DNA of 64,000 nt from a virus (IMGVR_UViG_3300007177_000042), one strand, 5' to 3'. Positions 8,763-38,689 are shown, counted from the first letter of the stretch. Translations and numbers: made by a program. Notes: generated by a model from the letters alone, not told the origin.

Positions 8763-8912
8763 TAGCAAGATAACAGATAGACGCCGAACCTGTTGGTTGT
8801 AAAAGGTGACGCACACCGCCGTCGCGGGGGTCCACGTTCAATTCGTGGTAGGTTCGTAGGGAACATACGGCCATCCTTAAATGGAGAGTCGGTGAAATCC
8901 TGAAACTTGCTA
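8763..8912 (+). ncRNA. wwAGA/GAAC/GTGAAATC motif RNA, copy 1
   Basis: TAGCAAG/CTTGCTA outer helix; CAG-ATAGA-[CGAACCT...AGGTTCG]-GAAC-[...]-GTGAAATC-CTG. Confidence 0.65.
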
Positions 8913-8949
8913 TTGACTTTCTCTAAAACTCTGATAAGGTAGATTCACA

Positions 8950-9108
8950 ATGATTGAGATTATCCGTAATCCGTTGACAAAGTTGTCACTTCTCAGCAAC
9001 ATTTGGATTGAAGATGGTATGTTGTTTCACATCCTCATTCCACATGACACAGAACAAATCGAATTGTTGACTGACAATGAGATTGGTCAATATATGGGCG
9101 GCAATTAA
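8950..9108 (+). CDS. Small hypothetical protein (52 aa)
   Basis: Promoter geometry. Confidence 0.6.
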   Translation: MIEIIRNPLTKLSLLSNIWIEDGMLFHILIPHDTEQIELLTDNEIGQYMGGN

Positions 9109-9316
9109 AAAGTTGTTGACTTCATGATCTTTCGTTGGTACAGACAATGGAAATGTAGTCGTGGAAACCACGAATTGGTGTCTGGTTATGTGCCTACCAA
9201 CAACCCTTTGGCACTAGATCGTGAAGTCAAGTGTGTGCATTGTTCATTCAAAAAAATCGTTGGTAGACAATACTTCTTCGATTGACTTTCAGTAAACCAC
9301 TGATAGGATAATCATC

Positions 9317-9553
9317 ATGGCATACGATCCGGATCTTAGAAACTGTCAAAACATTCTTGAATCCAAGAGAACTTTTGTTGCCGATGACAGACAACATGCA
9401 TATGAATCTGTTGTCAATGCCCTTAGCAAGGCAGGCTTTGGTGTGACCATGGTGGGTGATGTTCTCACTGTTCGTAACAAAGGATTTGATGCTACGTTTA
9501 TTCTTCACGAAGTAAGGCTTGACAGAGACCGCGTCGAACCTGATGGAAAATAA
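9317..9553 (+). CDS. Hypothetical protein
   Basis: Promoter and ORF. Confidence 0.65.
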   Translation: MAYDPDLRNCQNILESKRTFVADDRQHAYESVVNALSKAGFGVTMVGDVLTVRNKGFDATFILHEVRLDRDRVEPDGK

Positions 9554-9815
9554 AAGCGTGTATATGTCAAATACGAACTGGACAGATACACCGCCAAATA
9601 CGCCGGGGTGGTATTGGGTAAGACGCAAGAAAGAATGTAGTGTGGAGTATTTTCCATACTATGGTCAATACCCCGAACACTGGTCTGTCATTCGTCAGAA
9701 TACTTTGGACATGCTGATTGAAAGCGGTAACCAACAGCTAACAGATGAATTTGCCAATCTTGACCAGAAGACGTTCGTCGTAGAATACAACGGTCCAATC
9801 TTTCCACCAAACTAG
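9519..9815 (+). CDS. Hypothetical protein (WTDTPPNTPGWYW motif); true start likely downstream
   Basis: ORF track. Confidence 0.6.
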   Translation: MTETASNLMENKSVYMSNTNWTDTPPNTPGWYWVRRKKECSVEYFPYYGQYPEHWSVIRQNTLDMLIESGNQQLTDEFANLDQKTFVVEYNGPIFPPN

Positions 9816-9852
9816 TTGACTTTCAGTAAACCACTGATAGGATATTCGCACA

Positions 9853-10011
9853 ATGAAAATCTTGGTGTATTATCCTGCTACGCAAAAAACCCAAATCATT
9901 GAATGTGAAAGAATTGAGGCGGGTCCCGGCGGAATCATGTGGGTCAATCGCCGTGATTGTGGATTTGTTGGATTTTGCGAGGACTATACAATTACCATAG
10001 TCGATCATTGA
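9853..10011 (+). CDS. Small hypothetical protein (52 aa)
   Basis: Promoter geometry. Confidence 0.55.
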   Translation: MKILVYYPATQKTQIIECERIEAGPGGIMWVNRRDCGFVGFCEDYTITIVDH

Positions 10012-10019
10012 CTTTCAAT

Positions 10020-10135
10020 TGACTGGTGGCGAAACGGCAAACGCACGGAGGCATCCGATTCTCCAATGTTGTATGTCGGCAGACAGAAGCATTGGCATTG
10101 CACGAATGAAGGTTCAAATCCTTCCCAGTCAACCA
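10020..10135 (+). ncRNA. tRNA-scaffolded RNA (acceptor, D-arm, T-arm and CCA intact; anticodon region replaced)
   Basis: TGACTGG/CCAGTCA-A-CCA; D arm GCG-AAACGGCAAA-CGC; T arm GAAGG-TTCAAAT-CCTTC; 116 nt. Confidence 0.7.
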
Positions 10136-10180
10136 TTTTCCGTTTGACATTTTCTAAAACCCTGATAACCTATTGTTGTT

Positions 10181-10528
10181 ATGAAAATCACATACTCAAT
10201 CGCAGAAGCACTCACCATCCTCACCGAACGTGCCAAGGCACTCAACCACATTCAAGATTTGTCGGTTGAAGTAACATACCCACAAAACCCCATTGGTGCA
10301 CAAGACACCAATACCACCGATCAACATCCTTTGGAAGCTTACGCCGTAGTCGTCCGGGAATATGGCGGTTCTAGGCACAATACGAACAAGATTCCAGCCA
10401 TCAAGGCGATTCGAGACCGAGTCCGGGGTTTGGGACTCGCTGACGCAAAGTGTGTCATTGAATCCGACCCCGCGTTGGTGCTCATTCACTTTTCTCGCTG
10501 CAATACGTTGAGCGGAATTTCCGAGTGA
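10181..10528 (+). CDS. Protein with a ribosomal protein L7/L12 C-terminal-like domain
   Basis: NKIPAIKAIRDRVRGLGLADAKCVIES compared with bL12 KKIxVIKxVRxxTGLGLKEAKxLVE. Confidence 0.7.
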   Translation: MKITYSIAEALTILTERAKALNHIQDLSVEVTYPQNPIGAQDTNTTDQHPLEAYAVVVREYGGSRHNTNKIPAIKAIRDRVRGLGLADAKCVIESDPALVLIHFSRCNTLSGISE

Positions 10529-10675
10529 CCAGCCGATAATCAATTCACAAGGTTGTGGGTCATCCTTTCAACAAAACCCCACCCATATATACAGGGCATC
10601 TGCGCTGCCCACCAGCCGCTTTTGTCGCCGGATGCCACTTGACTTTCTCTAAAACCGATATACACTGTACCCACA

Positions 10676-10933
10676 ATGAATCCTACGAACTACACGGTCG
10701 GTCAACGCATCATCCTCACCAAAGACAACTGGTTGACCATTCGCAACAGCAATCGCAGTATTCACGCATATCCAGACGATAACTACGTTAACATCGTTTA
10801 TCAATTGATGACCAACAACGTCGCAGGCACCGTCACCAAGCGATTTACGCCCGGTTATGAGTTCAACGTTACCTTTGACAATGGTCAAGTGCTGCAAATG
10901 AAAGATCACTGGGTCACTCCCATTTCCAAGTAA
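10676..10933 (+). CDS. Hypothetical protein (SH3-like beta fold?)
   Basis: Promoter geometry. Confidence 0.65.
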   Translation: MNPTNYTVGQRIILTKDNWLTIRNSNRSIHAYPDDNYVNIVYQLMTNNVAGTVTKRFTPGYEFNVTFDNGQVLQMKDHWVTPISK

Positions 10934-10988
10934 TTCAGTTCAAAAATCCGGTTGACTTTCTCTAAAACTTCGGTAACCTAGTCTCCTA

Positions 10989-11204
10989 ATGAATAACGAA
11001 CTGATCGCTAAGGCCCTCAAGAAGTTCCCCAAGGCCAAAAAGATCGCAGTCGAAAACTTCACCATGGGCTACAACGAACTGTCTATGGAAGCTTCCATGA
11101 ACCTCGAAATGGATGCCTCACTCTACAAGTGGAACGCACACACCACCAACGCCATTCGTTACGTGCTACAACACAAACACGCATTCAAAACCATGGCAGA
11201 CTAA
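10989..11204 (+). CDS. Hypothetical protein
   Basis: Promoter and ORF. Confidence 0.7.
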   Translation: MNNELIAKALKKFPKAKKIAVENFTMGYNELSMEASMNLEMDASLYKWNAHTTNAIRYVLQHKHAFKTMAD

Positions 11205-11402
11205 CACACAATCGGTTGTGGGTGATCCGTCAAAACCCTCAACAACACCACTACAAATAGTAGTGTCGCGACAATAAGAACTGCTATTCAATCAAAAACA
11301 CCTCGCTACGTCAACCACATAATGGTTTTCCGCGCCTGGTGTTGCTGCTTTTTATAGAAAGTTCTTGTGTTTGCCACTCTGCCGGTATAGAGTATTGCCA
11401 CG

Positions 11403-11720
11403 ATGAACGACACCGTGACACCCTTTGTTCCCACCCGCTTTGTTCCCACCCGTGACGATCTGATCGGCTACATCTCCGATATCTACAAGGAAATCAATGG
11501 GTTTCGTCCTCGCCCCGACTGGTCCATGCTCACTTACGAGGAGCTTGACAAGTGGGGTCGTGAGTTGTCCGCCGAAGCCATCCTCCACCGTAAGCAACAG
11601 GTGCAATGGGCCCGCCTGGCCCGCAAACTACGTCGTGCTCGTCAACGGGCTTGGGTGCAAAAGAAACGCACCTACTTCACACCCGTCACCTTCACACTGG
11701 GCATGCTAATGCCCACCTAA
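11403..11720 (+). CDS. Conserved phage hypothetical protein
   Basis: YISDIYKEINGFRPR motif; basic C-terminus. Confidence 0.65.
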   Translation: MNDTVTPFVPTRFVPTRDDLIGYISDIYKEINGFRPRPDWSMLTYEELDKWGRELSAEAILHRKQQVQWARLARKLRRARQRAWVQKKRTYFTPVTFTLGMLMPT

Positions 11721-11822
11721 ACCACCGGGAGCTGTCAAGCTCCCTTTTTCACTATTGCCATGGTTTTCCGCGGCTGGTTGATGCATAAAAAGACCCGGAT
11801 TTTACTCCGGGTTGTCAATCTT

Positions 11823-12341
11823 TTACTTGGCAAAGTTCAACTTCCTGAACTTGATGGCACGAATCGAATCCATCTTGAGAGTGATAACCGGCTGCTTGAA
11901 GTCACCCCAATCCTTCTCAGGAATAAAGGCCTTCATCTTGGTAACTTCCTCCTCAGTCAGCTCCCGACCATTCAGAACATACTTGGTTCCCTTGGTCCGA
12001 TGAGGAAAGAACTGAAGGTATTTCTGGTCCGGGTTCTTCTTGGAAAAACACAGCGGAGTGACCTTGCCATCGTTGGTGGTCTCATGCAGATACCACGTCT
12101 CGCCACCCTCGTAGTTCGCCTCAACACCAGCCTCCTTCATCCGACGATTCACTCGAGCCTCATGGTTCACATTCACCAAACCATTGCGCCGGGTAACCTT
12201 CACAGCACCCACAAAAGGATTGCCAGTCTTGCGCATCTTCACTTCGGTCTCAGTCTCGAGCGTCACAAACTGACACTCAGTGCCGAGAATACGGAGGAAG
12301 GTAACCAATTCGCTGTTGTCTTTGATAGTGATCGTCTTCAC
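11823..12341 (-). CDS. Conserved phage hypothetical protein
   Basis: GTG start at 12341 preceded on the minus strand by TTGAAA-N16-TAGTCT. Confidence 0.7.
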   Translation of the reverse strand: MKTITIKDNSELVTFLRILGTECQFVTLETETEVKMRKTGNPFVGAVKVTRRNGLVNVNHEARVNRRMKEAGVEANYEGGETWYLHETTNDGKVTPLCFSKKNPDQKYLQFFPHRTKGTKYVLNGRELTEEEVTKMKAFIPEKDWGDFKQPVITLKMDSIRAIKFRKLNFAK

Positions 12342-12556
12342 GGGTAAAAGACTACCAGATGATGTCCATCTTTCAACAAATAAAAGCCGCCGGGTGCCAC
12401 ATAAATGCCTTGACATATACCACCACCCACCAATCCCCATACACATCCATATCACCTTGTCAATACCTTTCTTCAGTTTCCGCGTATGCTCAAACATACA
12501 CTTTGTTCAAAATATGCCTTGTATATACGCCAACACCTGATACTCTGTTCTCCGAC

Positions 12557-12733
12557 ATGAATAAGAACATCGTCCGCTACAACGTCACCAAAAACCTCCA
12601 AACTCCCATGAACCTCCGCATCAGCCTCGACACTCGCCTTCGCCGCTCTCATGTCACCCGTGTCGCCCGTGACTACGCACATCTTCGTGAATCCATGGGT
12701 GACCTCACTGTCAAGAACTGGGACAACCTCTAA
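12557..12733 (+). CDS. Small basic protein
   Basis: ATG 12557 after a promoter-like TGATACTCT; 3' part of the track ORF. Confidence 0.5.
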   Translation: MNKNIVRYNVTKNLQTPMNLRISLDTRLRRSHVTRVARDYAHLRESMGDLTVKNWDNL

Positions 12734-12779
12734 CATCACAATCGGTTCGGGGTCATCCATAAACCCCACCACTTGTCAA

Positions 12780-13140
12780 CTACATTGTGGTTCACCATAG
12801 CCATATACACCCCACTCCACCCCACCCAAAACACTACCTTTTTGACCAGCATGCCTGGTACCCACCCCTACCCAAAATAACCCAAAAAACAAGGGGCAGG
12901 GTGGTATCCACCCCCCACCCTGCGCTACTTCTGAACAGGGGGTAGCGCTACCCCTCCCACCCGCGCAGAGTTGCGCAACACACAAGCAAAAAAATATCAT
13001 GGGAAAAACCGTATATATGGTTAACATAATGGTGTGTTTTTGTGGCATAGATTTTTGATAAGAGGGTGAAAAAGTGATGCGCACGCGGTGGGTGCAGAAA
13101 AAGTTTGGGGAGTTTTGTATATATGGTTATAGTTATGATA
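12780..13140. other. Candidate replication origin or genome-end junction
   Basis: Non-coding; + strand switches from C-rich to G-rich; hairpins at 12896-12923, 12937-12955, 12963-12976; direct repeat GTATATATGGTTA at about 13012 and 13116. Confidence 0.4.
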
Positions 13141-13147
13141 AAAAGAT

Positions 13148-14059
13148 ATGAGTGAAACAGTTGCATTGGTTAGTGTATCTGACGACAGATATGGGCGAAA
13201 AGGAGGAGCGTATGGTATTACACAGAACAAGGTGCGTCGTATAATTGAAAACAATGATCAATTTGGCATAGGCAGGCTGATGTTTTGGAATTGGAGAGAT
13301 ATAGAGAGCAGTGATTTGTATAGTGGCAATAGGGTATTATTGAGCAATGCGGATCCTGCGGTGAATGGTCGGTGTTACAAGCCGTATGTTATAATGAGGG
13401 CGTTGAGAGAGATGAATGATGGGGATTATGTTATATACAATGATGTATCGCCGGAGTGGTGGGAGGTTGGCGAGGATTTTGAGATAACGGATGGTTATCA
13501 GTTGGATGTTATCAAGCGGTTGTGTAGCAGCAATGGTGATATATTGAGTTGTAGGGTGAGTTGGCAGGCACCTGATGGGGTATTTGCGAATCATACGCAT
13601 GAGAATTTTACGAGTGAGAGGTGTATGAGGTATATGGAAATGGAGAGGTATCGGCATTGTTTGCAGCATGCTTCTGGAATGATGGTATTTAGAAAGAGTG
13701 TGCGTAGTATTGAGTATGTGGATAGGTGGATGAAGTATAATTTGGTGGATGAGTGTTGTGGGTTAAAGAATATAGATACTGGTGAGGATTATTGGGGAGA
13801 AGAGGCGAGTGTGCATGGCAAGATAGGGCATCGGCATGATCAGTCTATATCTGGGTTATTGGTGAATGATATTGGCAACCGGCTATTGAATATACCTGAT
13901 TATTGGAATCCTTATCCTACCAAGACCTATAATTTTTTGAGTTTTTGTATGACCGGGCACAAATATGAGTTTGTTGATTCTGTTATAGAGCCTAGCGGGG
14001 TGTACTATAAGAATGTATATATGAATGACCGTTGGAGTATTTTGAAAATGAGTCGGTGA
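13148..14059 (+). CDS. Putative glycosyltransferase-like protein
   Basis: YKPYVIMRAL...DGDYVIYND...GHRHDQS motifs of phage GT-A-like proteins. Confidence 0.6.
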   Translation: MSETVALVSVSDDRYGRKGGAYGITQNKVRRIIENNDQFGIGRLMFWNWRDIESSDLYSGNRVLLSNADPAVNGRCYKPYVIMRALREMNDGDYVIYNDVSPEWWEVGEDFEITDGYQLDVIKRLCSSNGDILSCRVSWQAPDGVFANHTHENFTSERCMRYMEMERYRHCLQHASGMMVFRKSVRSIEYVDRWMKYNLVDECCGLKNIDTGEDYWGEEASVHGKIGHRHDQSISGLLVNDIGNRLLNIPDYWNPYPTKTYNFLSFCMTGHKYEFVDSVIEPSGVYYKNVYMNDRWSILKMSR

Positions 14060-14095
14060 TATACGAGTTGTCGGTATATTTATTGTAACGTATAT

Positions 14096-14656
14096 ATGAT
14101 ATTATTGAAGCAACTGTTGAGCAGCATATTGAGTGAGGCAATGACATACAGTCAGTTATTGTCACAAACTGATGGTGTGCGTAGAAACAAGGGTGGGCGA
14201 ATGAGAGTTCGTAGTTTGGCAGGCAGTGCTAATGAGGATAGTGAGCAGTGGAATTTTGGGTATAAGAGTGCTAGTGATCATAACACTACGAATGGATCAC
14301 ATGAGGGTCGAATATCATTTGATAAGGATGCGTACAATCGTAACAAGGGCAAGCGTAGTATGAACGAGGTAGAGTGTAAGGTAGATTGTAGTTGTCCTGA
14401 CTATATGTATCGATGGGCGTATGCCAATTATTATAGAGATGCGGGCAGTTTGGGCAAAGACAGTTTGAATAGGTGTAATGGCAGTGTACCTGGCAAGACC
14501 AATCCTCGATTGAAGCCAAGTTTATGTAAACATTTGGTTGCGTTGAGTGGATATTTGAAGACCAAATTGGATGAAAGTGTTTATGATGATATGGGTGAGA
14601 AGTTGAGTGATGTTGTTAGCAAGAACAAACAATTTGAAATAAAGTATGAAGAATAA
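14096..14656 (+). CDS. SWIM zinc-finger protein
   Basis: VDCSCPD...LCKHLVAL (CxC...CxH). Confidence 0.75.
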   Translation: MILLKQLLSSILSEAMTYSQLLSQTDGVRRNKGGRMRVRSLAGSANEDSEQWNFGYKSASDHNTTNGSHEGRISFDKDAYNRNKGKRSMNEVECKVDCSCPDYMYRWAYANYYRDAGSLGKDSLNRCNGSVPGKTNPRLKPSLCKHLVALSGYLKTKLDESVYDDMGEKLSDVVSKNKQFEIKYEE

Positions 14657-15134
14657 GATAGACACGATGTTGTGTGAGGGTGACGTTGACAAAAACCGAA
14701 TCAAGGTTGCGTTGGCGTTTTTCATCAAACTTTTGAAATTGACGAGTGCGTCTAATCGAATCAGTTTGAAGTATGGATATTTGGATGTTGATCCTGAGAG
14801 TCAACTACCTACACAGGCTAGTGTTAAGGTGAGTGAGAGCAAGCCACACAAGTATACTATTACGATGCGTAGCAACAATCCTATGAGTGTTGACGAGCAG
14901 ATACGTCATTTGGCGCATGAGGTAAAGCATATTGAACAAGTTGAGAGTGGGCGATTTGATGTATATGGCAACAAGTGGGATGGAGTTACATATCCTACTG
15001 GGTATACGAGATCTGATTATATGAAGTATCCGTGGGAGCAAGATGCTCGTAGTGGTGCTGCTGAGATGTCGTTGGAGTTTACAAGATATATGCGTGACAG
15101 AGGCAGCAAAAAGAAGATTGTGAAGATACGTTGA
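14646..15134 (+). CDS. Zincin-like metallopeptidase
   Basis: LAHEVKHIEQ (HExxH) and PWEQDA downstream Glu motif. Confidence 0.75.
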   Translation: MKNKIDTMLCEGDVDKNRIKVALAFFIKLLKLTSASNRISLKYGYLDVDPESQLPTQASVKVSESKPHKYTITMRSNNPMSVDEQIRHLAHEVKHIEQVESGRFDVYGNKWDGVTYPTGYTRSDYMKYPWEQDARSGAAEMSLEFTRYMRDRGSKKKIVKIR

Positions 15135-15193
15135 AATATAAAAAGTTGCACACAAAACTTGACAAGTAAATTTTTGTGTGGTAGATTATTATA

Positions 15194-15681: not shown

Positions 15682-15689
15682 AGTATATG

Positions 15690-25724: not shown

Positions 25725-25847
25725 ATGATTGAGATAGACACATCTCTATGGGTTCGATTCCCTCTGGTGAAGGAGTATAAAATGTGGAACGGTAAGGCTG
25801 TACAGCCGTTTGGGAGTAATTATCCCCCGTGAAATCCTCTTAATCAT
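25725..25847 (+). ncRNA. wwAGA/GAAC/GTGAAATC motif RNA, copy 5
   Basis: ATGATT/AATCAT; GAG-ATAGA-[CACAT...ATGTG]-GAAC-[two hairpins]-GTGAAATC-CTC. Confidence 0.7.
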
Positions 25848-26189: not shown

Positions 26190-26417
26190 GTGGTGTTTCA
26201 CTTCAACAAGGCACATCTGAATGATAATAATATTCCGATGTGGGTTTTAAAAACAAAAGGCGAGACACATTATGTCAATCATGTGATTGCTAATGTTGGG
26301 TGGTCTACAAAAGAAACACCTGATAATAATCATACCAAAGGCAGTCTTAAGTTTAAGAATGTCGATGTGATTATTGATGAACAGAACGAGGCAACAATTT
26401 CTGCGGCTGTAGCTTAA
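26190..26417 (+). CDS. Conserved phage hypothetical protein
   Basis: FHFNK...PMWVLKTKGETHYVNHV...TKETPDN.HTKGS; 3' end overlaps the suppressor tRNA. Confidence 0.7.
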   Translation: MVFHFNKAHLNDNNIPMWVLKTKGETHYVNHVIANVGWSTKETPDNNHTKGSLKFKNVDVIIDEQNEATISAAVA

Positions 26418-26478
26418 CGGTATAAAGCAGTCGTCTCTAAAACGACCAATATGGGTTCGAATCCCATCAGGCGCACCA
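26403..26478 (+). tRNA. Amber suppressor tRNA (anticodon CUA)
   Basis: GTCGT-CTCTAAA-ACGAC; canonical D and T arms; A73-CCA; one G:G mismatch in the acceptor stem. Confidence 0.85.
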
Positions 26479-26634: not shown

Positions 26635-27565
26635 ACAATAAGAATTCGATGGAGTTGAGACTGTAGCTCAACTTAAAAGAGTGACTAGGAACCGAATCCA
26701 TCAAATCGTTCTTTGTAAGAAACAAGATTTGGGGTGCTTGAACTCCATATAAGATAGTGAGTAGTAATACTCATGAAAGAGGTAATCCCCTAACGGATCC
26801 TCGCCTTCGCAAGAAGGACAGTCAAGCAACTGGCAATGTCTGTGACTTTCATCCAAAAGGTGGAAGTATATCCGACGCTGGATCGACAAATGATAACTGA
26901 GGGTAACACTGTAAGTTGTCTACTAACGGTACCGCCGAGCACTGTTGATTCCTTAAGTGGAACAGCCACGAATAAGACACAAGCCAAAGATACGGGTGTG
27001 AGACCGCAATCAAATGCTCGTATGTAGATTGATAGAAAGTGGGCAGGGTAACCAGAACACAATCTTGAAAATCGGTGAAGTATCCGCAAGAGAAACACAT
27101 GTGGTGTGTCGCATATTGTATCCCAAAAGGGTATGAAACGACAAACAACGCACATCACGGTTAGGTGCATAATTAGCTCAATGGTAGAGCAATTCCTTTG
27201 TACGGAATATGTTATTGGTTCAAATCCAGTATTATATTAAAAACGCAAAGTCGTTGTTTGTCTAAGATGAAAGTGACTTAACTCTGTGACCGAAAGGTAA
27301 CACAGACAACGAAACATCCGCAAGATGCTAGTTGTTAATTGGAGTCTGAACGGAGTCCGCAAGACTTAACTGCTCGCAAGGCAGACGGTTGGATGAAGGT
27401 TGAATAGTCTTAGGTTAAGGTTGAAAAGCCACAACCCTAAAAAGGCAGTCATGTTGAATACAGTTATAGACGCAAGTCGTAACCGTGGATATGTTGGGAA
27501 GCCGATCCGCAAGATTGGTATAATCTAACTAAAGGTCAACAGATAAAGCGGTAATCTCACGCCAA
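26635..27565 (+). ncRNA. GOLLD-like giant ornate RNA (about 930 nt)
   Basis: ORF-poor; many GCAA/GAAA tetraloop hairpins; terminal GCG-GTAATCTCA-CGC hairpin recalled as a GOLLD 3' signature; promoter TTGACG...TAAGAT upstream; tRNA-array context. Confidence 0.7.
27167..27238 (+). tRNA. Degenerate tRNA-Thr(UGU) embedded in the GOLLD-like RNA
   Basis: D arm GCTC/GAGC; ATTCC-TTTGTAC-GGAAT; T arm; weak acceptor stem, no CCA. Confidence 0.6.
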
Positions 27566-27572
27566 TCAAATA

Positions 27573-27626
27573 AATAAGCAATGTGATAGACATTCGGAAC
27601 GTTTGTGAAATCCACAACAGCTTATT
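27573..27626 (+). ncRNA. wwAGA/GAAC/GTGAAATC motif RNA, copy 6 (minimal)
   Basis: AATAAGC/GCTTATT; TGTG-ATAGA-CATTCG-GAAC-GTTT-GTGAAATC-CACA. Confidence 0.7.
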
Positions 27627-30792: not shown

Positions 30793-30956
30793 GACCGTGT
30801 AATGGAATTAGACATACGGATGACAGGTAGCATGGAGTACGAGGCTCTGGGTGGTTCCAGAGTACAGTTGAATAAAACCATGTCTGTCAGACGGGTGCTA
30901 GATATAGCCTGACCAGCCTTGAAACTAGTTATAGGTAGCCAATCCTATCACGGTCC
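30793..30956 (+). ncRNA. tRNA-scaffolded RNA carrying a variant of the repeated motif
   Basis: GACCGTG/CACGGTC; Leu/Ser-like D arm; T-like ATAGG/CCTAT; insert TGACAG/CTGTCA; CTAG-ATATAG-CCT-GACC-AGCC-TTGAAA-CTAG. Confidence 0.6.
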
Positions 30957-30965
30957 ACAATTTAC

Positions 30966-31607: not shown

Positions 31608-31617
31608 AATTTCTTAT

Positions 31618-31692: not shown

Positions 31693-31697
31693 ATTTT

Positions 31698-31726: not shown

Positions 31727-31923
31727 GTGCATAAGCCAAATGTGTTTTCGATTTATAATTACTATGTATTTGTTCCTACAAAGTGATTGACCTCACGGAA
31801 CTGTTATGGTATAGTTTAGTCTGAATGTCCGATTGTGTTTTTTGACACTAAGGACGGCAAAGAAATCAATATGTGTTGATGGATTTGTTACAATCACTAA
31901 AACAAAACGAGAATAAATAAAAT

Positions 31924-32622
31924 ATGAAGAAACTACTAGTAATGCTGACGGCTCTTATTGCTTCCGTCTCTATCCACGCAGCTGACATCGCCAACATTGG
32001 TATTGAGGCTGGTTACAACAACCACTATACTGTTAATGGTGTCTCCCGTGCTGAAAACGCTGCATTTGTCGGATTCAATGCTGTCAAGTCACTTAAGTAT
32101 GCCGACGTTTATGTTGGCGGCACCCTACTTCCGACTGGCGACGATGATCAGTCTCACTGGGTCGTTGGTCTTGGAAAGACGGTGGACTTCAATAAGGAAT
32201 GGTCTGCTCGGTTGACTACCGACGTTACACGTCATCAAGCCGGTGGATTTGGTATTCCTAACTCGACTGAGTTTGGAGTTAAGTTGGCATTGAATAATCC
32301 ATATGTGACACCTTATGTCCGAGGAGCATTCGATATCGATTTGCACCAGAACGGCGTGTTTGTTGGTGCCCAACGTGTTCAGCCGTTGTTTTACGGTTTT
32401 ACCGTTACTCCTATTGTCGAGTATGGTTATGTTAATGACTATGAGACTATTAATGTGAAGGGCACTCTCGCTCGTCCATTCACTACTCCTATTGGAACAG
32501 TGACTCCGTTTGTTGAGGTCGGGTGGTTTGATAACAACTTTGACACTGCCAAGTATAATTGGGCAACCCGTGAATTTTCGGGAACAGTTGTTTACACTGC
32601 TGGATTGAAGCTTAATTTCTAA
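31924..32622 (+). CDS. Outer-membrane beta-barrel protein
   Basis: Sec signal peptide (SIHA|ADI), alternating amphipathic strands, C-terminal LKLNF. Confidence 0.8.
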   Translation: MKKLLVMLTALIASVSIHAADIANIGIEAGYNNHYTVNGVSRAENAAFVGFNAVKSLKYADVYVGGTLLPTGDDDQSHWVVGLGKTVDFNKEWSARLTTDVTRHQAGGFGIPNSTEFGVKLALNNPYVTPYVRGAFDIDLHQNGVFVGAQRVQPLFYGFTVTPIVEYGYVNDYETINVKGTLARPFTTPIGTVTPFVEVGWFDNNFDTAKYNWATREFSGTVVYTAGLKLNF

Positions 32623-32646
32623 TCTGAAAAATTAGGTTGACTCAAA

Positions 32647-32685
32647 CCGACAGCAGTGGTAAAACATTGCTGTCGGTATTTTTTT
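32647..32685 (+). terminator. Intrinsic terminator
   Basis: ACCGACAGCA...TGCTGTCGGT followed by a T tract. Confidence 0.85.
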
Positions 32686-32701
32686 GTAAGGAGATAACTA
32701 T

Positions 32702-32938
32702 ATGGCACATTTTATCAAGTTAAACGTGTTGGATCCGTCGCACGATGTTAATAGTAACAAACGAGAATACATTCCACAATTGATTAACCTAGATATGGTA
32801 GTATCTGTTGAACCGTCTAAAGTTCACAGTTTGGTTTTTGTAAAAAACAACCAACAACCAATCAGGGTTAAAGAGTCGTTGGATGAAATTCTTTCTCTTA
32901 GTAAGAACTGTAACGAAAAAACAAAGATCAATGGATAA
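32702..32938 (+). CDS. FlbD/YlzI-like small protein
   Basis: FIKL...LINLDMVVSVE...IRVKESLDEIL. Confidence 0.55.
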   Translation: MAHFIKLNVLDPSHDVNSNKREYIPQLINLDMVVSVEPSKVHSLVFVKNNQQPIRVKESLDEILSLSKNCNEKTKING

Positions 32939-33034
32939 AGGTTTTCCGCCCACCGGGCGGATTTTTTATGATCGGGTGTAATACAATTTGTATGATAAAT
33001 GTATGCGTGAATTTTTTCCGGAAATATAATTGAG

Positions 33035-33664
33035 TCACCATATCCATCCGATTTGATATTCGTCGAAATATGGGCTTTTGTTTATATGGTTCATATAATC
33101 GTTGATATATTTCCCTTTACCTTTTCCATGATCATTATCATCTACAACAATTAGTGTTCCCTTTTTAATTTTTGGAAATATTGCTAATAGTTCTTTAAAA
33201 TGATGTAACGAACTATTATGCGGATTATTCCAATCCACATCATACGAATCTAAGTACAAAAAATCAACTAAGGGAAATGTAGGAGAGTTGCTAAAATTAT
33301 GAAGCGTAGTTACGCTATCGGCACAAATAACTGTTGATTTGGAAGACAACATTGGTTTGGTTAATTCACACGCGTCATGGTTTATATCAATTGTGGTAAA
33401 CGAACCAGACCGTTTAAAAAAGTGTAGGTATTCATCGATCAATAACGTACTATGACCATCACCCGTATAATTGTTAATAGATCGACTAATACCAGTTTCA
33501 ATGATCACTGGGTTTGGAATCGTATCTAAATACCCAAATATTTTTTTGAACGTACTAAATCGATGTGACAACCCTGTGTATATTTCAAAATACTCAGAAT
33601 GTCGTTTTGAAGAATTGTTAATGGTTGATTGTTGTTGCTTTTTATAGTCATCGAAATATGCCAT
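33035..33664 (-). CDS. Class I SAM-dependent methyltransferase
   Basis: VIIETG...TIDI...DSV...DFLYLDSYD...LIVVDD. Confidence 0.8.
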   Translation of the reverse strand: MAYFDDYKKQQQSTINNSSKRHSEYFEIYTGLSHRFSTFKKIFGYLDTIPNPVIIETGISRSINNYTGDGHSTLLIDEYLHFFKRSGSFTTIDINHDACELTKPMLSSKSTVICADSVTTLHNFSNSPTFPLVDFLYLDSYDVDWNNPHNSSLHHFKELLAIFPKIKKGTLIVVDDNDHGKGKGKYINDYMNHINKSPYFDEYQIGWIW

Positions 33665-33722
33665 GATTTAATATATCATTAAAAAAATCGAATTGATTGT
33701 TTTATTTACTACTTAAAATTGC

Positions 33723-34655
33723 ATGAAATCTAACTCAAAAATTTACGTTGCTGGACATAATGGTATGGTAGGCTCTGCCATCTGGAGATCATTATTATCG
33801 AAAGGATATGACAATTTGATGGGAGCATCCAGTAGGGATTTGGATTTGAAAGATCAGCAAAAGGTCAACAATTTTTTTGAAATCACAAATCCGGAGTATG
33901 TTGTGGTTGCTGCTGCAAAAGTTGGTGGTATTGTTGCCAACAGTACATATCCAGCGGAATTTATTTACAACAACCTTCAGATTCAAAACAACTTAATTGA
34001 ATCATCTCGACGATATGGTGTAAAAAAATTGTTGTTTTTGGGAAGCAGTTGTATCTATCCTAAGTATGCTCCACAGCCGATTCGTGAAGAACATTTGTTG
34101 ACAGGCACTCTTGAACCTACAAATGAATGGTATGCTCTGGCAAAAATTGCAGGAATCAAGATGTGTCAGGCATATCGCAAACAATACGGGTGTAACTTCA
34201 TAAGTGCTATGCCGTGTAACTTGTATGGAGAACGTGATAATTTCGATTTGAATACTTCACATGTTTTGCCAGCGTTGATTCGAAAGTTTCACGAAGCCAA
34301 AGTCTACAACAAGCCACAAGTCGTTTGCTGGGGAACGGGTACGCCTATGAGAGAGTTCCTTTACGTAGATGATTTGGCGGACGCCTGTGTATTTTTGTTA
34401 GAGAGTTACGATGAAGATCAACACATCAATGTTGGATTCGGTGAAGACATTACAATCAAACAAGCAGTTGAAACCGTCCGTGATGTTGTTGGTTATGAAG
34501 GAGAAATTGTATGGGACACTACAAAGCCAGATGGAACGCCACGAAAGATAATGGATAGCACAAGAATTCAAAACATGGGGTGGAAACCAAAAGTTCAGTT
34601 ACGAGAGGGATTGGAAAAAACTTACTATTGGTTCAAAAATTCTGTACGTTTTTGA
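33723..34655 (+). CDS. fcl: GDP-L-fucose synthase
   Basis: AGHNGMVGSA, AAAKVGGI, GSSCIYPK, YALAK, WGTGTPMREF, KPDGTPRK. Confidence 0.95.
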   Translation: MKSNSKIYVAGHNGMVGSAIWRSLLSKGYDNLMGASSRDLDLKDQQKVNNFFEITNPEYVVVAAAKVGGIVANSTYPAEFIYNNLQIQNNLIESSRRYGVKKLLFLGSSCIYPKYAPQPIREEHLLTGTLEPTNEWYALAKIAGIKMCQAYRKQYGCNFISAMPCNLYGERDNFDLNTSHVLPALIRKFHEAKVYNKPQVVCWGTGTPMREFLYVDDLADACVFLLESYDEDQHINVGFGEDITIKQAVETVRDVVGYEGEIVWDTTKPDGTPRKIMDSTRIQNMGWKPKVQLREGLEKTYYWFKNSVRF

Positions 34656-34787
34656 AATTTGCCAATATGTATTGACAGAATGAAGAATCAATCCGTACAG
34701 TCAAGTGTAGTCGCCGGACAATCAAGTCCAGCGCTATTGCCTAGCTTAAGCTAGAACTGACTAACGGTAAATTTGCTAAAGAACAAA

Positions 34788-34822
34788 CCGTTGGTCCACA
34801 AAACCAACGGTTTTTTGTTTTT
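34788..34822 (+). terminator. Intrinsic terminator
   Basis: AACCGTTGG...CCAACGGTT followed by a T tract. Confidence 0.75.
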
Positions 34823-35061
34823 GAGCAAGGCTTGACTTTTCAAAGAGACGTGGTATAGTGAATGGACAATAAAGAACGACAATATGGAAAACGACATTGA
34901 CAATACAACGCAGTTGGATTACCTTAGAAACAAGATGTTGAATGAACGGTATCCAACATACCAATACTACATGGCAATTAAGCAAGTTGCTGATAGTATT
35001 TTTCCTGAACCGGAATACAAGTATTTGAAATTGTTGAATATTGAGTAAAAAAATTTTGGGC

Positions 35062-35148
35062 TTGAAACTCTATCTGGTGTGCCCTTCGTAAGATAAAACA
35101 CTTGATCGGTCAACTGGTGTTATCCTAGTAGAGAACCAGTATGGCGAT
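35062..35148 (+). ncRNA. Operon-leader RNA motif, copy B
   Basis: Paralog of 16877-16997 with covarying stems. Confidence 0.65.
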
Positions 35149-35167
35149 AAATTGGTACAAATTTAAC

Positions 35168-35242
35168 GGGCGGTTAGCTCAGTGGAAGAGCAGATCCTTT
35201 ACACGGATAAGGTCAGAGGTTCAAATCCTTTACCGCCTACCA
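35168..35242 (+). tRNA. tRNA-Val(UAC)
   Basis: Loop TTTACAC. Confidence 0.95.
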
Positions 35243-35249
35243 TTTTTAT

Positions 35250-35327
35250 CGGAGTGTAGCTCAACTTGGCTAGAGCGCTTGCTTTGGGAGCAAGAAGTTG
35301 CAGGTTCAAATCCTGTCACTCCGACCA
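35250..35327 (+). tRNA. tRNA-Pro(UGG)
   Basis: Loop TTTGGGA. Confidence 0.95.
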
Positions 35328-35333
35328 TTTTAC

Positions 35334-35411
35334 GGTGATATAGACCAACTGGAAGGAGTCGTTACTTTGAGAGAGTAAATAGTGCAGGTTCGAATCCTGT
35401 TATCACCACCA
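35334..35411 (+). tRNA. tRNA-Leu(GAG), short variable loop
   Basis: TTACT-TTGAGAG-AGTAA. Confidence 0.85.
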
Positions 35412-35414
35412 ATT

Positions 35415-35498
35415 CGGCATATGATGTAATAGAAGCCATGCGAGTCTTAGAAGCTCGTGGAGAAATCCGTGGGGGTGCAAGTCCCTCTATGCCGACCA
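35415..35498 (+). tRNA. tRNA-Leu(UAG)
   Basis: Loop CTTAGAA, V arm. Confidence 0.9.
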
Positions 35499-35505
35499 AT
35501 TTAAT

Positions 35506-35583
35506 GGCTACGTAGACCAACCGGAAGGAGTCGTCTATCTCAAAAATAGAATAGTGCTGGTTCGAATCCAGTCGTAGCTACCA
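35506..35583 (+). tRNA. tRNA-Leu(CAA), short variable loop
   Basis: TCTAT-CTCAAAA-ATAGA. Confidence 0.85.
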
Positions 35584-35592
35584 ATTTATAAT

Positions 35593-35677
35593 GGGTGTGT
35601 GGACACGGCGAAACTGGAAGAAGCGTCTCATTTAAAACGAGAAGTCCTTGTGAGTTCGAATCTCACCACACCTACCA
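35593..35677 (+). tRNA. tRNA-Leu(UAA), atypical (large D loop, short V region)
   Basis: Loop TTTAAAA. Confidence 0.7.
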
Positions 35678-35683
35678 ATTTAT

Positions 35684-35759
35684 GGGCTGGCATGTTCTAA
35701 GGGAGCGAGACTGTTTTGCAAACAATCTGTTGTGAGTTCGATTCTCATCTGGTCCACCA
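35684..35759 (+). tRNA. tRNA-Ala(UGC)
   Basis: G3-U70; loop TTTGCAA. Confidence 0.8.
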
Positions 35760-35879
35760 ATTTTTTTGCTAGTTTGAACGTAACCACATATTCATGTGGA
35801 CGAGGGGACGACCCCGCTTAGACGCACTAAGAAGATTTGTTCTTAGTGGTAAGACGGCTTCAAACGGTACACATTTTAT

Positions 35880-35969
35880 GGAAGGGTGGCTGAGTGGCTT
35901 AAGGCGTCGGTCTTGAAAACCGAAGGGGCCTCAAAACCTCCGGGGGTTCGAATCCCTCTCCTTCCTCCA
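35880..35969 (+). tRNA. tRNA-Ser(UGA)
   Basis: Loop CTTGAAA. Confidence 0.95.
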
Positions 35970-35975
35970 ATTTAT

Positions 35976-36069
35976 GGATGGTAGACGAATAGTTAGTTAG
36001 TCGTATCTGTTTGCTAAACAGACGTGGCCTAAAAAACCACTGTGGGGGCAGCACCCACATCATCCGCCA
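35976..36069 (+). tRNA. tRNA-Ser(GCU)
   Basis: Loop TTGCTAA; T loop GGCAGCA. Confidence 0.9.
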
Positions 36070-36075
36070 ATTTGT

Positions 36076-36162
36076 GGAACATAAACCGGACAGCCGTGCC
36101 GGAACTGATTCGAAATCAGATTGCACTATGTGTGTGGGGTTGAAGTCCTCTGTGTTCCGCCA
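36076..36162 (+). tRNA. tRNA-Ser(CGA)
   Basis: Loop TTCGAAA. Confidence 0.85.
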
Positions 36163-36164
36163 AT

Positions 36165-36252
36165 GGAGAGTAAACCAGTTAGGTACTGGGGTTGATTGGA
36201 AATCAGCACGCACCTTGAAAGGTGTGAGTTTCGAATACTCTGCTCTCCTCCA
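36165..36252 (+). tRNA. tRNA-Ser(GGA)
   Basis: Loop TTGGAAA. Confidence 0.85.
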
Positions 36253-36341
36253 TTTAATAACACTCCACTTGACATTGGAACCGAGAACTGATAGATTGAT
36301 ATCGTTCCTTGAAGAAATCGGAGATTGTCAAAAGATTTTAT

Positions 36342-36433
36342 GGTGAGGTGTCTGAGTGGTCTAAAGAGACAGTTTGCTAAACTGTTGTACGGTTAACCCC
36401 GTACCGAGGGTTCGAATCCCTCCCTCACCGCCA
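36342..36433 (+). tRNA. tRNA-Ser(GCU)
   Basis: Canonical. Confidence 0.95.
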
Positions 36434-36438
36434 ATTTT

Positions 36439-36512
36439 GCGGGTATAGCTCAATGGTAGAGTGTCAGTCTTCCAAACTGATTATGCGGGTTCAATTCCCG
36501 CTACCCGCTCCA
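36439..36512 (+). tRNA. tRNA-Gly(UCC)
   Basis: Canonical. Confidence 0.95.
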
Positions 36513-36522
36513 AGTTTATGAC

Positions 36523-36596
36523 TGGGGATTTGCATAATGGTAGTGCAGGAGACTTTGGATCTCTTAGTGAAGGTTCGATTCCTTCATCCCCTGCCA
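36523..36596 (+). tRNA. tRNA-Gln(UUG)
   Basis: Loop CTTTGGA. Confidence 0.92.
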
Positions 36597-36844
36597 ACAT
36601 TTATATATGTCAGTTAAGGGTCTAACTTTAGAGAAATTGTAACTAGTGATCATATGTTACAAAAGTAAATTCTAGTTGTCGAAAGGCACGTTGATCAAAC
36701 ACTGACTGAAATTTTGTTACGATAGATACATGGTAAACACAGTTAAGTGTTCGTGGAATCAAAATAATCGTCTAATAAATATAGGACGATAAATACCACC
36801 AAGATCGCATGTCGCTATAGCAAACTTTATCGTAACGTTTTTAT

Positions 36845-36920
36845 CGGAGTGTAATGTCAAAAGTAGACGGCCTGTTTTGGAGACAGGAGGTTGAGATTGC
36901 GAAATTCTCCACTCCGACCA
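36845..36920 (+). tRNA. tRNA-Pro(UGG)
   Basis: Loop TTTGGAG. Confidence 0.85.
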
Positions 36921-36970
36921 TTTTAATTTGTCTCGCCGAAAATAACGGTTGCATATCTACCAAGTAAAAT

Positions 36971-37046
36971 CGGGCGTGAGGAAGATAGCTAATCCGCGCC
37001 GTTTGGGACGGCGAGACACCGGGAGCAATACCCGGACGCCCGACCA
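36971..37046 (+). tRNA. tRNA-Pro(UGG)
   Basis: Loop TTTGGGA; T loop AGCAATA. Confidence 0.85.
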
Positions 37047-37051
37047 TTTAT

Positions 37052-37125
37052 TGGGGTTTAGTATAAAAGTATTATGGCTCGCTTTGAACGAGAGGACGGT
37101 GGAGCATTACCATCAACCCCAGCCA
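37052..37125 (+). tRNA. tRNA-Gln(UUG)
   Basis: Loop CTTTGAA; T loop AGCATTA. Confidence 0.9.
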
Positions 37126-37134
37126 AATTAATAA

Positions 37135-37239
37135 TCAGCGTGTAGACCAACATTAAAGAGTCAATTCCCACAAGGGAACAATGAGTGTGGCTTGAAAGAG
37201 ATGTCTATGTGACAGGTGAAAATCCCACTACGCTGACCA
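37135..37239 (+). ncRNA. tRNA-scaffolded RNA with T arm replaced by an inserted domain
   Basis: CAGCGTG/TACGCTG-A-CCA; D arm GAC/GTC; TTCCC/GGGAA arm; GTGG...AAAGA...GACA-G-GTGAAAATC-CCAC. Confidence 0.55.
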
Positions 37240-37263
37240 TTTATTTAAAATCAAAACTATTTA

Positions 37264-37506
37264 TTGCGTAGGAGTTCAATTATGAATATCAAAAACGCAA
37301 TAAAAATGTTTGTAGTCACAAATTTATGTTTGTTGACATTAACCGCTGCCGGATTTCAAACGGAAAAATCAATTGAGACGTATAGAAAAAATTATACATC
37401 GTTGGTTTCTAAATGGAAGAAAGAAAAAAACGTTGAAAAGAAGAAAATTCTTCGTCAACAAATTGAACAGTTGAAAGAAAACAATGTTCATCTGTTCAAA
37501 AAGTAA
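37264..37506 (+). CDS. Secreted or membrane small protein (likely start 37282)
   Basis: Signal-like N-terminus; TATTTAT upstream. Confidence 0.6.
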   Translation: MRRSSIMNIKNAIKMFVVTNLCLLTLTAAGFQTEKSIETYRKNYTSLVSKWKKEKNVEKKKILRQQIEQLKENNVHLFKK

Positions 37507-37511
37507 TTTAT

Positions 37512-37585
37512 TGGGGATTAGTATAAAAGCATTATAACTGACTCTGAATCAGAAGAAGGTGGAGCATTACCATCATCCCCAGCCA
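37512..37585 (+). tRNA. tRNA-Gln(CUG)
   Basis: Loop CTCTGAA. Confidence 0.9.
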
Positions 37586-37607
37586 ATTTTGTTACTATTT
37601 ATACAAT

Positions 37608-37967
37608 ATGATAAAAGCAATCTTAACAAGTATGTTATTGTCCATATCAGTAATGGCATCAGAAAAAACATTGTTGAGTGAGGTTATAGATTTGACCAAA
37701 GAGAAAATTTCAAATGAAATCATTGTTGATTATATCAAGACGAAACCATTGTTGATTAAGTTATCTGCTCAGAATATAATTGAATTAAAGAAAGAAAAAG
37801 TTGATGATGCGGTTGTGAAATTTTTGATTCAAAAGTCTGAGTATGAAGAGAAGATTAAACTGGTGTTGGATAACTATGACAAAATAGTTGAATATAACAA
37901 CTACATATATTTTCAAAAAACATATTTGGAGCCGAGAGCAAAAGCTATGGCTGTCAAATATAATTGA
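37608..37967 (+). CDS. Secreted hypothetical protein
   Basis: Signal peptide; LSEVIDLTKEKISNEIIVDYIK...LSAQNIIELKKEKVDDAVVKFL. Confidence 0.7.
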   Translation: MIKAILTSMLLSISVMASEKTLLSEVIDLTKEKISNEIIVDYIKTKPLLIKLSAQNIIELKKEKVDDAVVKFLIQKSEYEEKIKLVLDNYDKIVEYNNYIYFQKTYLEPRAKAMAVKYN

Positions 37968-37968
37968 A

Positions 37969-38283
37969 TTTGACACAAGTGACTCTACGCTGGTGTAAAT
38001 AACACTAGAGGAAGTTCGCTGCTGCACAGCAGATGATTGGGAGGACATAAGTTAACTTCAAATTGCCCACAACGATTAAAAGATTGCAATTCCGTGGAAG
38101 CAAGGAGCAATCCGGTTAACCTCAGTCCGTTAAAACCACAAATTAGCAGTAATCCTAAATAACCCGAGTGTAGTGCTGCACGTTGAAGGGTGAGGTTGGA
38201 GCAGTTGTTTTTAACGAACAACCAGTAGTAATACTGAGAGAAATGTAGGGATAAAACAGAACAGCGGCTATGGCTGTGTCAAA
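37969..38283 (+). ncRNA. rnpB: RNase P RNA (divergent)
   Basis: P1 TTTGACACA/TGTGTCAAA; P2 CTCTAC/GTAGGG; P3 hairpin; CR-I GAGGAAGTTCGCTG (38008) pairs with CR-V ACAGAACAGCGGCTA (P4 with bulged U); P18-like CAGTA-GTAA-TACTG followed by AGAGAAATG. Confidence 0.78.
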
Positions 38284-38376
38284 AATCTTGTGGTGGTTTG
38301 ACCACGGCGTGAGGGACACGATACACCCCTGTATGTCTGACCCGGACGAAACGACCCGTAAGGGTAGGGTTGAATT

Positions 38377-38589
38377 TTGATGAAAACATACAAGTTAACA
38401 GAGCTTAAAGCCGGAGAAAAAGGGCGAATTGTTGAAGTTAACATTGATAGTCAACGGTTAAAAGAACTTGGCATTATTCGTGGTGCAATTATAACCGTAG
38501 TTACAAACAATTTAATTTGTATGATTTGTAATACCCGAATTTGTTTGGGTAAACCGATGACAGACAATATCATCGTTGAAAAGATGTGA
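38377..38589 (+). CDS. feoA: FeoA-family protein
   Basis: LTELKAGEKGRIVEV...QRLKELGIIRGAIITV...RICLG. Confidence 0.75.
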   Translation: MMKTYKLTELKAGEKGRIVEVNIDSQRLKELGIIRGAIITVVTNNLICMICNTRICLGKPMTDNIIVEKM

Positions 38590-38650
38590 TCGTTGGTGTA
38601 TAGAATTATAGCACGCTACACGTTGAGAGGGTAGAGGAGATCGAAGTTGA

Positions 38651-38689
38651 CGGGTTAGACATTATCAGGAACGTTTCGTGAAATCCCCG
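38651..38689 (+). ncRNA. wwAGA/GAAC/GTGAAATC motif RNA, copy 7 (in a larger element at about 38605-38716)
   Basis: CGGG-TTAGA-CATTATCAG-GAAC-GTTTC-GTGAAATC-CCCG. Confidence 0.7.

Follow-up and report, generated by a model that had tools for sequence, protein, structure and literature searches.

A small RNA module repeated in a phage tRNA island and widespread in phages: a new family with a possible double T-loop core

The double T-loop module was defined by Lehmann et al. (2013; PMC3664808) on the basis of six core residues, including a G at position 2 of the 5' pentad; in the known pattern, the 5' pentad reads AGNNA and has an A:A closer, while the 3' pentad reads UGNNA, with a U:A closer and again a G at position 2. 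In RNase P RNA, the Rfam consensus for type A runs P11-ACAGAAA-P12-GGGUGAAA-(P13/14)-P11'. Zhang and Ferré-D'Amaré (2016; PMC4810234) predicted that further RNAs recognising the elbow of transfer RNA (tRNA) exist. The present analysis concerns a stretch of 64,000 nucleotides (nt) from the virus IMGVR_UViG_3300007177_000042 (hereafter, the window), part of a 107.7 kb record in IMG/VR that is estimated to be 31% complete, and a small RNA module that occurs in this window eight times. An earlier note, made from the sequence by itself, had listed these eight copies as a candidate family of double T-loop, tRNA-elbow-binding RNAs; all of them were confirmed at their places, on the + strand, where shuffling leads one to expect 0.01.

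From 5' to 3', the module consists of a closing helix, P1; G-AUAGA; C-[P2]-G, where P2 is of variable form; GAAC; a linker of 3-5 nt; G-UGAAA-UC; and C-P1'. The GAMC block stands 3' of the P2 hairpin, the closing pair of which is C-G. The composite pattern G-WWAGA...GAMC...GTGARATC-C, with at least three closing pairs, has eight matches in the window; in 200 dinucleotide-preserving shuffles, it has a mean of 0.01 and never more than one. The closing stems given in the earlier note were correct. All eight copies are on the strand that carries the 36 tRNA genes and the transfer-messenger RNA (tmRNA) of the region. They are listed here with spans measured from the start to the end of P1 and with scores from the covariance model described below, followed by two possible relatives:

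Copy 1, 8774-8902, + strand: P1 CAG/CUG; counted on the pattern and P1, the model finding a part only; P2 forms a large, branched arm of some 85 nt, within which there is a T-arm-like hairpin (CCACG-UUCAAUU-CGUGG), and the linker has a small hairpin inside it.
Copy 2, 18579-18648, + strand: 13 bits; P1 CTG/CAG; 5' pentad AAAGA; P2 is a long hairpin.
Copy 3, 20052-20102, + strand: 18 bits; P1 CTAG/CTAG; blocks GACC and UGAGA; P2 is the hairpin AAGCAA-GUUCGAAA-UUGCUU, near-identical in locus L036.
Copy 4, 21912-21965, + strand: 20 bits; P1 CTAG/CTAG; P2 is the hairpin UCUUG...CAAGA with the loop GAGUAGGGCACGAAA.
Copy 5, 22451-22485, + strand: 47 bits; P1 GAG/CTT; minimal form without a P2 helix; ends about 20 nt upstream of a tRNA-like gene (22504-22581).
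Copy 6, 25731-25839, + strand: 15.8 bits; P1 GAG/CTC; P2 CACAU...AUGUG is a long arm bearing a T-arm-like hairpin (GGG-UUCGAUU-CCC), and the linker has two hairpins; begins 23 nt 3' of tRNA-Cys.
Copy 7, 27582-27616, + strand: 49 bits; P1 TGTG/CACA; minimal form; possible outer stem at 27573-27626.
Copy 8, 38650-38690, + strand: 56 bits; P1 CGGG/CCCG; 5' pentad UUAGA.
Possible degenerate relative, 30898-30928, + strand: CUAG-AUAUAG-CCU-GACC-AGCC-U-UGAAA-CUAG; read from the sequence, with no match by the model.
Possible degenerate relative, 37185-37231, + strand: GUGUGG-C-UUGAAAGA-...-GUGAAAAUC-CCAC; without the GAAC block, and with no match by the model.

In copies 5, 7, and 8, P2 has shrunk to a single closing pair and a loop of 3-8 nt. 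The module had been described as carrying variable inserts of 6 to about 80 nt; the variability stands, and the measured range is 3 to about 85 nt. As for the last two entries, which had been taken for variants within tRNA-scaffolded RNAs at about 30900 and 37180, they have P1 and a UGAAA-type block in common with the module, but, since they lack other blocks and the covariance model gives no score, they can be considered only as possible degenerate relatives.

The covariance model was seeded with the three short copies of the window and four homologues; a MAFFT alignment of the raw copies had been rejected because it misaligned the 5' block. The model recovered copies 4, 3, and 2, on which it had not been trained, as well as parts of copies 6 and 1. 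A search of IMG/VR with the exact pattern GATAGAC-N(3-33)-GGAAC-N(2-7)-GTGAAATCC gave 66 matches in 65 loci, and the module is carried by more than 60 unrelated phage contigs. P1 comprises at least three contiguous pairs in the flanks of 53 of these 66 matches, whereas around half of the 32 pattern matches in bacterial genome contigs have the fixed G-C pair only and look like chance matches; the family is therefore strongly enriched in phage sequence. Looser patterns were less useful. With TAGA..GAMC..GTGARATCC, the IMG/VR matches were mostly due to chance, 84 of 118 lacking any closing pair, so tighter patterns were adopted. A long-linker pattern picked up a protein-coding family (accttgacca-GATAGAC...GTGAAATCC-acctgccagc) in which P1 is 1 base pair (bp) long and the variation is codon-like; this conserved gene occurs in one phage group (L229, L235-L237, L239, L241, L244-L246, and others) and calls for caution in searches by regular expression.

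Evidence that the module acts as RNA comes from covariation, which was studied in an alignment of 83 model matches, 74 of them distinct. Standard pairs occupy 88.8% of the P1 cells, compared to 61.8% after shuffling, a level reached by none of 500 shuffles; a single pair column contains AU 33, GC 18, UA 14, and CG 3 times, and pairing falls to 46-49% when the partner strand of P1 is slid by one column. P1 has a median length of 4-5 bp. P2 segments of at least 12 nt have at least four closing pairs in 55% of cases, as against 6% in shuffled ones, and 40 of the 42 sequences are distinct. The linker, too, can hold a hairpin in members of the family; a third helix that would close it by pairing the C of GAAC with the G of GUG was looked for, and linker hairpins proved usually to be flanked by unpaired bases. 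The core blocks, in contrast to these stems, are 97-100% invariant across contigs of 27-62% G+C, and UGAAA is present as the 3' pentad in 82-83 of the 83 aligned members, its sole variant, UGAGA, being that of copy 3. Extension of the outer stem to about 12 bp, suggestive of the RNase P ruler, is not above chance (12.47 pairs, compared to 12.44 in shuffled controls). Since the minimum-free-energy z-scores of single copies are unremarkable (-1.1 to +1.1), the signal of the module lies in covariation and not in an unusual thermodynamic stability.

Covarying stems around fixed blocks, as described in the earlier note, are thinly attested among the eight copies by themselves, and strongly attested once the homologues that the covariance model found in other phages are included. 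The conclusion drawn there, that this is a functional RNA fold, modular and with variable inserts, rather than a DNA repeat, is confirmed by stems that covary while the single-stranded blocks stay invariant. The copies are genes for a compact, structured RNA of small size, about 40 nt in its minimal form, and belong to a family widespread among phages.

Comparison with Rfam 15, including tRNA, hammerhead, twister, pistol, hatchet, drum, skipping-rope, and YrlA, revealed no family over any of the eight window copies at E <= 5, apart from a single sub-threshold match on copy 8 at the level of chance (leuA-Halobacteria, 15 bits, E 2.2), and none over eight copies in other loci at E <= 10. The covariance models for RNase P (RF00010, RF00373, and relatives) give no score on any copy. 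A likeness to the hammerhead (xGA-stem-GAA) was rejected, as the CUGA box is absent and Rfam finds no match. The stable RNAs C and D of T4 (rnaC/rnaD, species 1 and 2) are unrelated, the best E of the model in T4 68000-76000 being 0.85. A BLAST search of the region of the copy 8 type against 50,697 cultured phage records gave no match, and a literature search for sequence strings of the module returned only primers and other unrelated matches. Altogether, the module constitutes a robust new RNA family, hitherto unannotated, of an already known structural kind.

The genomic context is mostly that of tRNA genes. The island in the window extends from about 8 kb to 40 kb, with its 36 tRNA genes (ARAGORN) and tmRNA all on the + strand, in a virus record that also has T4-like baseplate genes. 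Among the 66 pattern matches, 45 are in loci with tRNA genes, nearly always on the same strand, which bears out the co-location and co-orientation noted earlier. The module may be upstream or downstream of a tRNA, with gaps down to 6-11 nt and with no preferred side or tRNA identity; it is spaced like one more gene of the tRNA array. Particular copies have kept their places across phages: the copy 8 type, with conserved flanks, is upstream of tRNA-Ala, tRNA-Gly, and tmRNA in more than 15 other contigs; orthologues of copy 2 lie 11-16 nt upstream of tRNA-Asn in L112 and L036, and in L036 the copy 2 and copy 3 types flank tRNA-Asn as they do in the window; copy 4 and its counterpart in L175 have a common P2 loop and differing, compensated stems. 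The module is also found 6-20 nt 3' of the end of the GOLLD model in three lineages (the window; L152/L170/L176; L138), although one GOLLD locus, L154, has no module at the GOLLD 3' end. Instances free of tRNA are in short gaps, mostly between co-oriented phage genes (e.g., 3' of an amidase gene or 5' of the gene for the small terminase), and no recurrent neighbouring protein family was found at these loci.

Several further arrangements were observed in these arrays. Locus L090 has two tandem copies about 20 nt apart (2448-2519 and 2540-2589) between tRNA-Ser and tRNA-Glu, and a third, of the AGAGA/GACC type, at 5475-5529 in the same array. Truncated relatives, consisting of P1 and GUGAAAUCC only, with or without GGAAC, are present at L183 6311-6344 and L036 3434-3471, and one of the two is 7 nt 5' of tRNA-Asp. 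The string CAAUUU(U) recurs in the window island directly 5' of tRNAs and other RNA units (e.g., 22491-22503, 30950-30958, and 38712-38722), and may be a leader or processing signal. The tRNA at 26403-26478 has the anticodon CUA (labelled 'tRNA-Pyl' by ARAGORN; 65.6 bits with the Rfam tRNA model) and is a candidate amber suppressor. The stretch 18243-18331 is 88-91% identical to annotated tRNA-Pro genes of the Bacillus phages TsarBomba and BCP78 and is called neither by ARAGORN nor by the Rfam tRNA model.

Evidence at the RNA level is centred on the GOLLD RNA of the window (27101-27563, 212 bits), in which a tRNA-Thr is embedded at 27167-27238. GOLLD contigs from a relative about 98% identical are present in four metatranscriptomes from at least three studies; they extend from 26647 or 26764 to 27562-27566, one of them running into adapter at 27562, so the transcribed unit starts some 450 nt 5' of the Rfam model. 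Since this RNA ends 16-20 nt before P1 of copy 7, the copy is outside the abundant GOLLD RNA. The 3' half of copy 8 is spanned by one RNA contig of low depth; assembled contigs cannot reveal an RNA of 40-60 nt.

What, then, is the module? A double T-loop that docks on the tRNA elbow is tentatively preferred here as the best single explanation, given the sequence signature, the topology, and the genomic association. The core contains two T-loop-like pentads, A(U>G)AGA and UGAAA, with the closers A..A and U..A, and this signature agrees with the double T-loop module (PMC3664808) in five of the six core residues. The 3' pentad conforms entirely to UGNNA, with its U:A closer and G at position 2. 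The 5' pentad departs from AGNNA at position 2 and keeps the A..A closers; in confident members, it always begins with A or, in the copy 8 type, U, and ends with A. The canonical combination AGAGA...UGAAA is present in about 10% of members, one example within an array being L090:5475; L282 and L285 are also of the AGAGA type. It is these two pentads, the RNase P topology, and the canonical pair in a tenth of the family that make tRNA-elbow binding a reasonable reading. Moreover, although the phages differ greatly in G+C and probably have distant hosts, the core is invariant, in keeping with a universal partner such as the tRNA elbow. Another register for the 5' T-loop, AGAC-N (like the ACAGAAA of RNase P), was rejected, since a long P2 always includes its C and the following base in Watson-Crick pairs.

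Several observations weigh against a double T-loop that docks on tRNA. U occupies position 2 of the 5' pentad in some 80% of members; where P1 has at least 3 bp, the counts at this position are U 45, G 5, and C 2. The residue two before this pentad is locked in a Watson-Crick pair of P1, and the invariant GGAAC block, which has no counterpart in known modules, is not explained by the model. About a third of instances are between protein genes, far from any tRNA gene, and the metatranscriptome contigs stop just short of copy 7. Finally, an alternative fold is equally possible, in which tandem sheared G-A pairs (G13-A14 and G118-A119) extend P2 in a manner resembling a K-turn. Covariation cannot choose between the two folds because all the residues involved are invariant, and it is likewise silent on the interdigitated arrangement, with its two stacked base triples and flat platform, since the candidate tertiary partners are all invariant. 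Of the likeness to double T-loops proposed in the earlier note, therefore, the identity of G-UGAAA, the closers, and the P11-J11/12-P12-J12/13 topology can be retained, while the U at position 2 and the unmatched GGAAC do not conform.

Each copy is a hairpin in which P1 closes a 'loop' of about 30 nt containing the three blocks G-AUAGA-C, G-GAAC, and G-UGAAA-UC-C, with two sites, P2 and the linker, for variable hairpins. Copies are apparently transcribed along with the tRNA arrays, or between co-oriented phage genes, and presumably released by the host enzymes that also excise the tRNAs. If the core is a double T-loop, the pentads A(U/G)AGA and UGAAA would interlock, with P1 and P2 holding them in the way that P11 and P12 hold J11/12 and J12/13 in the RNase P specificity domain (S-domain). 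The resulting flat stacking platform would dock on a tRNA or tRNA-like RNA at the G19:C56 face of its elbow. Docking would thus be the task of the constant core, and context or specificity would come from the P2 and linker arms, which are variable but conserved among orthologues. It is conceivable, though unlikely, that phages use the module as a free-standing clamp on the tRNA elbow by which tRNAs or tRNA-like RNAs are captured, marked, or handed over. Such a clamp might hold tRNAs for processing, load or tether them to GOLLD cages, or shield them from host defences that target tRNA, the variable arms setting the specificity of each paralogue.

A relationship with RNase P in trans had also been envisaged, with the module acting for an RNase P RNA poor in S-domain. 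This idea found no support. Models for RNase P RNA find no match anywhere in the virus record; a 64 kb phage that is 95% complete has the module, and no RNase P RNA was found in it; and a 265 kb phage (G005) has both the module and an RNase P RNA that has retained an AGAGA/UGAAA pair of its own. In view of these two phages, the family can be explained without complementation in trans of a defective S-domain. In the 265 kb phage, the RNase P RNA (L323 1501-1878; G005:C1:170948-171325, minus strand) is of the bacterial type A (170 bits, E 3e-56), is without P13/P14, and is located within a tRNA array, 370 nt from a module copy. In the window, a stretch of about 370 nt free of open reading frames (37969-38339) is covered by RNA contigs of two metatranscriptomes and is 89-92% conserved 5' of a module of the copy 8 type in L108, L163, and L170; strings resembling CR-I (GAGGAAGUUCGCUG) and CR-V (ACAGAACAGCGGCUAUGG) can be seen by eye at 37970-38283, where no Rfam model for RNase P scores.

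Other explanations must be considered. One is that the module is 'tRNA punctuation', a compact fold, tRNA-like or recognised by nucleases in some other way, beside which host RNase P, RNase Z, or RNase E cuts, thereby defining the ends of neighbouring tRNAs, GOLLD, or mRNAs, and which has no further role. The module is indeed always at the boundaries of units, whether between tRNAs (with gaps of 6-30 nt), between co-oriented protein genes, or directly 3' of GOLLD in the three lineages; GOLLD contigs in three metatranscriptomes end at 27562-27566, which leaves 7-11 nt to the possible outer stem of copy 7; and G-UGAAAUC-C matches the tRNA T-loop, closed by G53-C61, in length and ends. Yet the ruler of RNase P, about 12 bp of acceptor and T-arm, is not satisfied, because P1 is short and no stem extends it beyond chance, while the A/U-rich spacer 5' of copy 7 might be cut by RNase E even without a module. 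Orthologous copies also keep distinct conserved P2 loops, for which a plain cleavage mark would have no need, and the GOLLD locus without a module has to be set against this explanation, which appears rather unlikely. A new class of small self-cleaving ribozyme that processes the polycistronic RNA of phages would likewise account for the RNA end just 5' of copy 7, and small ribozymes typically show conservation of this kind, with covarying helices, hairpins that are expanded in some members, and about 17 junction nucleotides that do not vary; the intergenic position between co-oriented phage genes and the absence of a match to any known ribozyme family are also in its favour. The GOLLD end, however, is some 16-20 nt before P1, away from any defined position of the core, and T-loop pentads, which are known in a purely structural role, account well for the core itself; a ribozyme is therefore highly improbable.

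Alternatively, the invariant core might bind a small ligand, the ribosome, or a conserved protein, the module being a decoy or an aptamer rather than a binder of tRNA, which seems unlikely to much the same degree as a processing mark. In its favour are the extreme invariance of the blocks, which extends even to positions 3 and 4 of UGAAA, where the generic double T-loop pattern allows any base, and the maintenance in one genome of several paralogues with different arms. The string GAAC...GUGAAA(U)C also resembles loop B/C of 5S rRNA in E. coli. No protein gene was found to recur in the neighbourhood, nor was there a riboswitch-like fixed position 5' of one gene family, and any protein partner would have to be universal, since the contigs span 27-62% G+C. 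There is almost nothing to recommend a DNA-level repeat without RNA function (a recombination site, a homing target, or a promoter or terminator element) beyond repetition within one region of a genome: the stems have kept their complementarity although their sequences are entirely different from copy to copy, every copy is on the transcribed strand, and the inserts are themselves hairpins with compensatory changes. Such strand-specific compensatory change indicates a transcribed fold rather than a site in double-stranded DNA.

Phage tRNA islands are increasingly viewed as kits for counter-defence and for the takeover of translation, and we know of no function for the RNAs other than tRNA that they contain (GOLLD, ROOL, and others). 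To these RNAs, the module adds one that is very small (about 40 nt, hence easy to study), very conserved, and very widespread. Were its core a double T-loop, the prediction of further elbow-recognising RNAs (PMC4810234) would be fulfilled, and a minimal, portable tRNA-docking device would become available for structural work and RNA engineering; were it a processing mark or a ribozyme, the making of the ends of GOLLD and of phage tRNA precursors would be explained. Either way, the module merits a family entry and a covariance model, so that it can be annotated in phage genomes.

With respect to known systems, the module occupies the same niche as GOLLD and ROOL, large phage RNAs near tRNA islands, and in the three lineages mentioned follows GOLLD within 6-20 nt; it has no relation to them in sequence or structure and is outside the Rfam model for GOLLD. 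An analogy may be drawn with mascRNA, the tRNA-like processing element downstream of MALAT1, which is likewise a small, tRNA-flavoured fold directly 3' of a large, stable non-coding RNA that ends just before it. The module, in contrast, has a short stem only and no cloverleaf, and is at most a candidate for cleavage by RNase P.

The L1 stalk offers a closer likeness. T-loop 2 of the stalk is G-UGAAA, the same as the 3' block of the module, and E. coli 23S rRNA at 2162-2173 (GACC-U-UGAAA-UA, then CC) resembles GAMC-N-G-UGAAA-UC-C. The parallel with GACC that had been pointed out is therefore present in the E. coli sequence, on which alone it is based; the L1 stalk of Thermus is not known to have GACC. 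In both the L1 stalk and the T-box, the pattern is A..NA / UG..A, with an A:A closer for one loop and U:A for the other, as in the module. Their loops, however, are bridged by a helix (H77) formed of the strands 3' of each loop, whereas those of the module share one closing helix, as in RNase P. The 5' loop of L1, AGGA(U)A (AGGAUA in E. coli 23S rRNA), is in another register. G2 of the 5' loop is not conserved in the module, and the residue two before the 5' pentad forms the docking platform in the L1 stalk, while its equivalent in the module is paired in P1.

It is the core of the RNase P specificity domain (P11-J11/12-P12-J12/13, CR-II/CR-III) that the module resembles most in layout, with the same order of elements: a closing helix, an A-x-A/G-G/A-A pentad, a hairpin, G-UGAAA, and the return strand. 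Its 3' GUGAAA is that of the Rfam type A consensus and of J12/13 in E. coli rnpB, and the AGAGA of E. coli rnpB is found in about 10% of module members. The module differs from RNase P RNA in that it is free-standing, at about 40 nt, without a catalytic domain (P4, CR-I, CR-IV, CR-V), in that position 2 of its 5' pentad is mostly U, and in its extra invariant GGAAC block and UC dinucleotide. Nonetheless, the RNase P RNA of the 265 kb phage, having no P13/P14, reads P11-ACAGAGA-P12-GGGUGAAA-P11', which is exactly the topology of the module. The module may thus work like an isolated S-domain core, and may derive from one.

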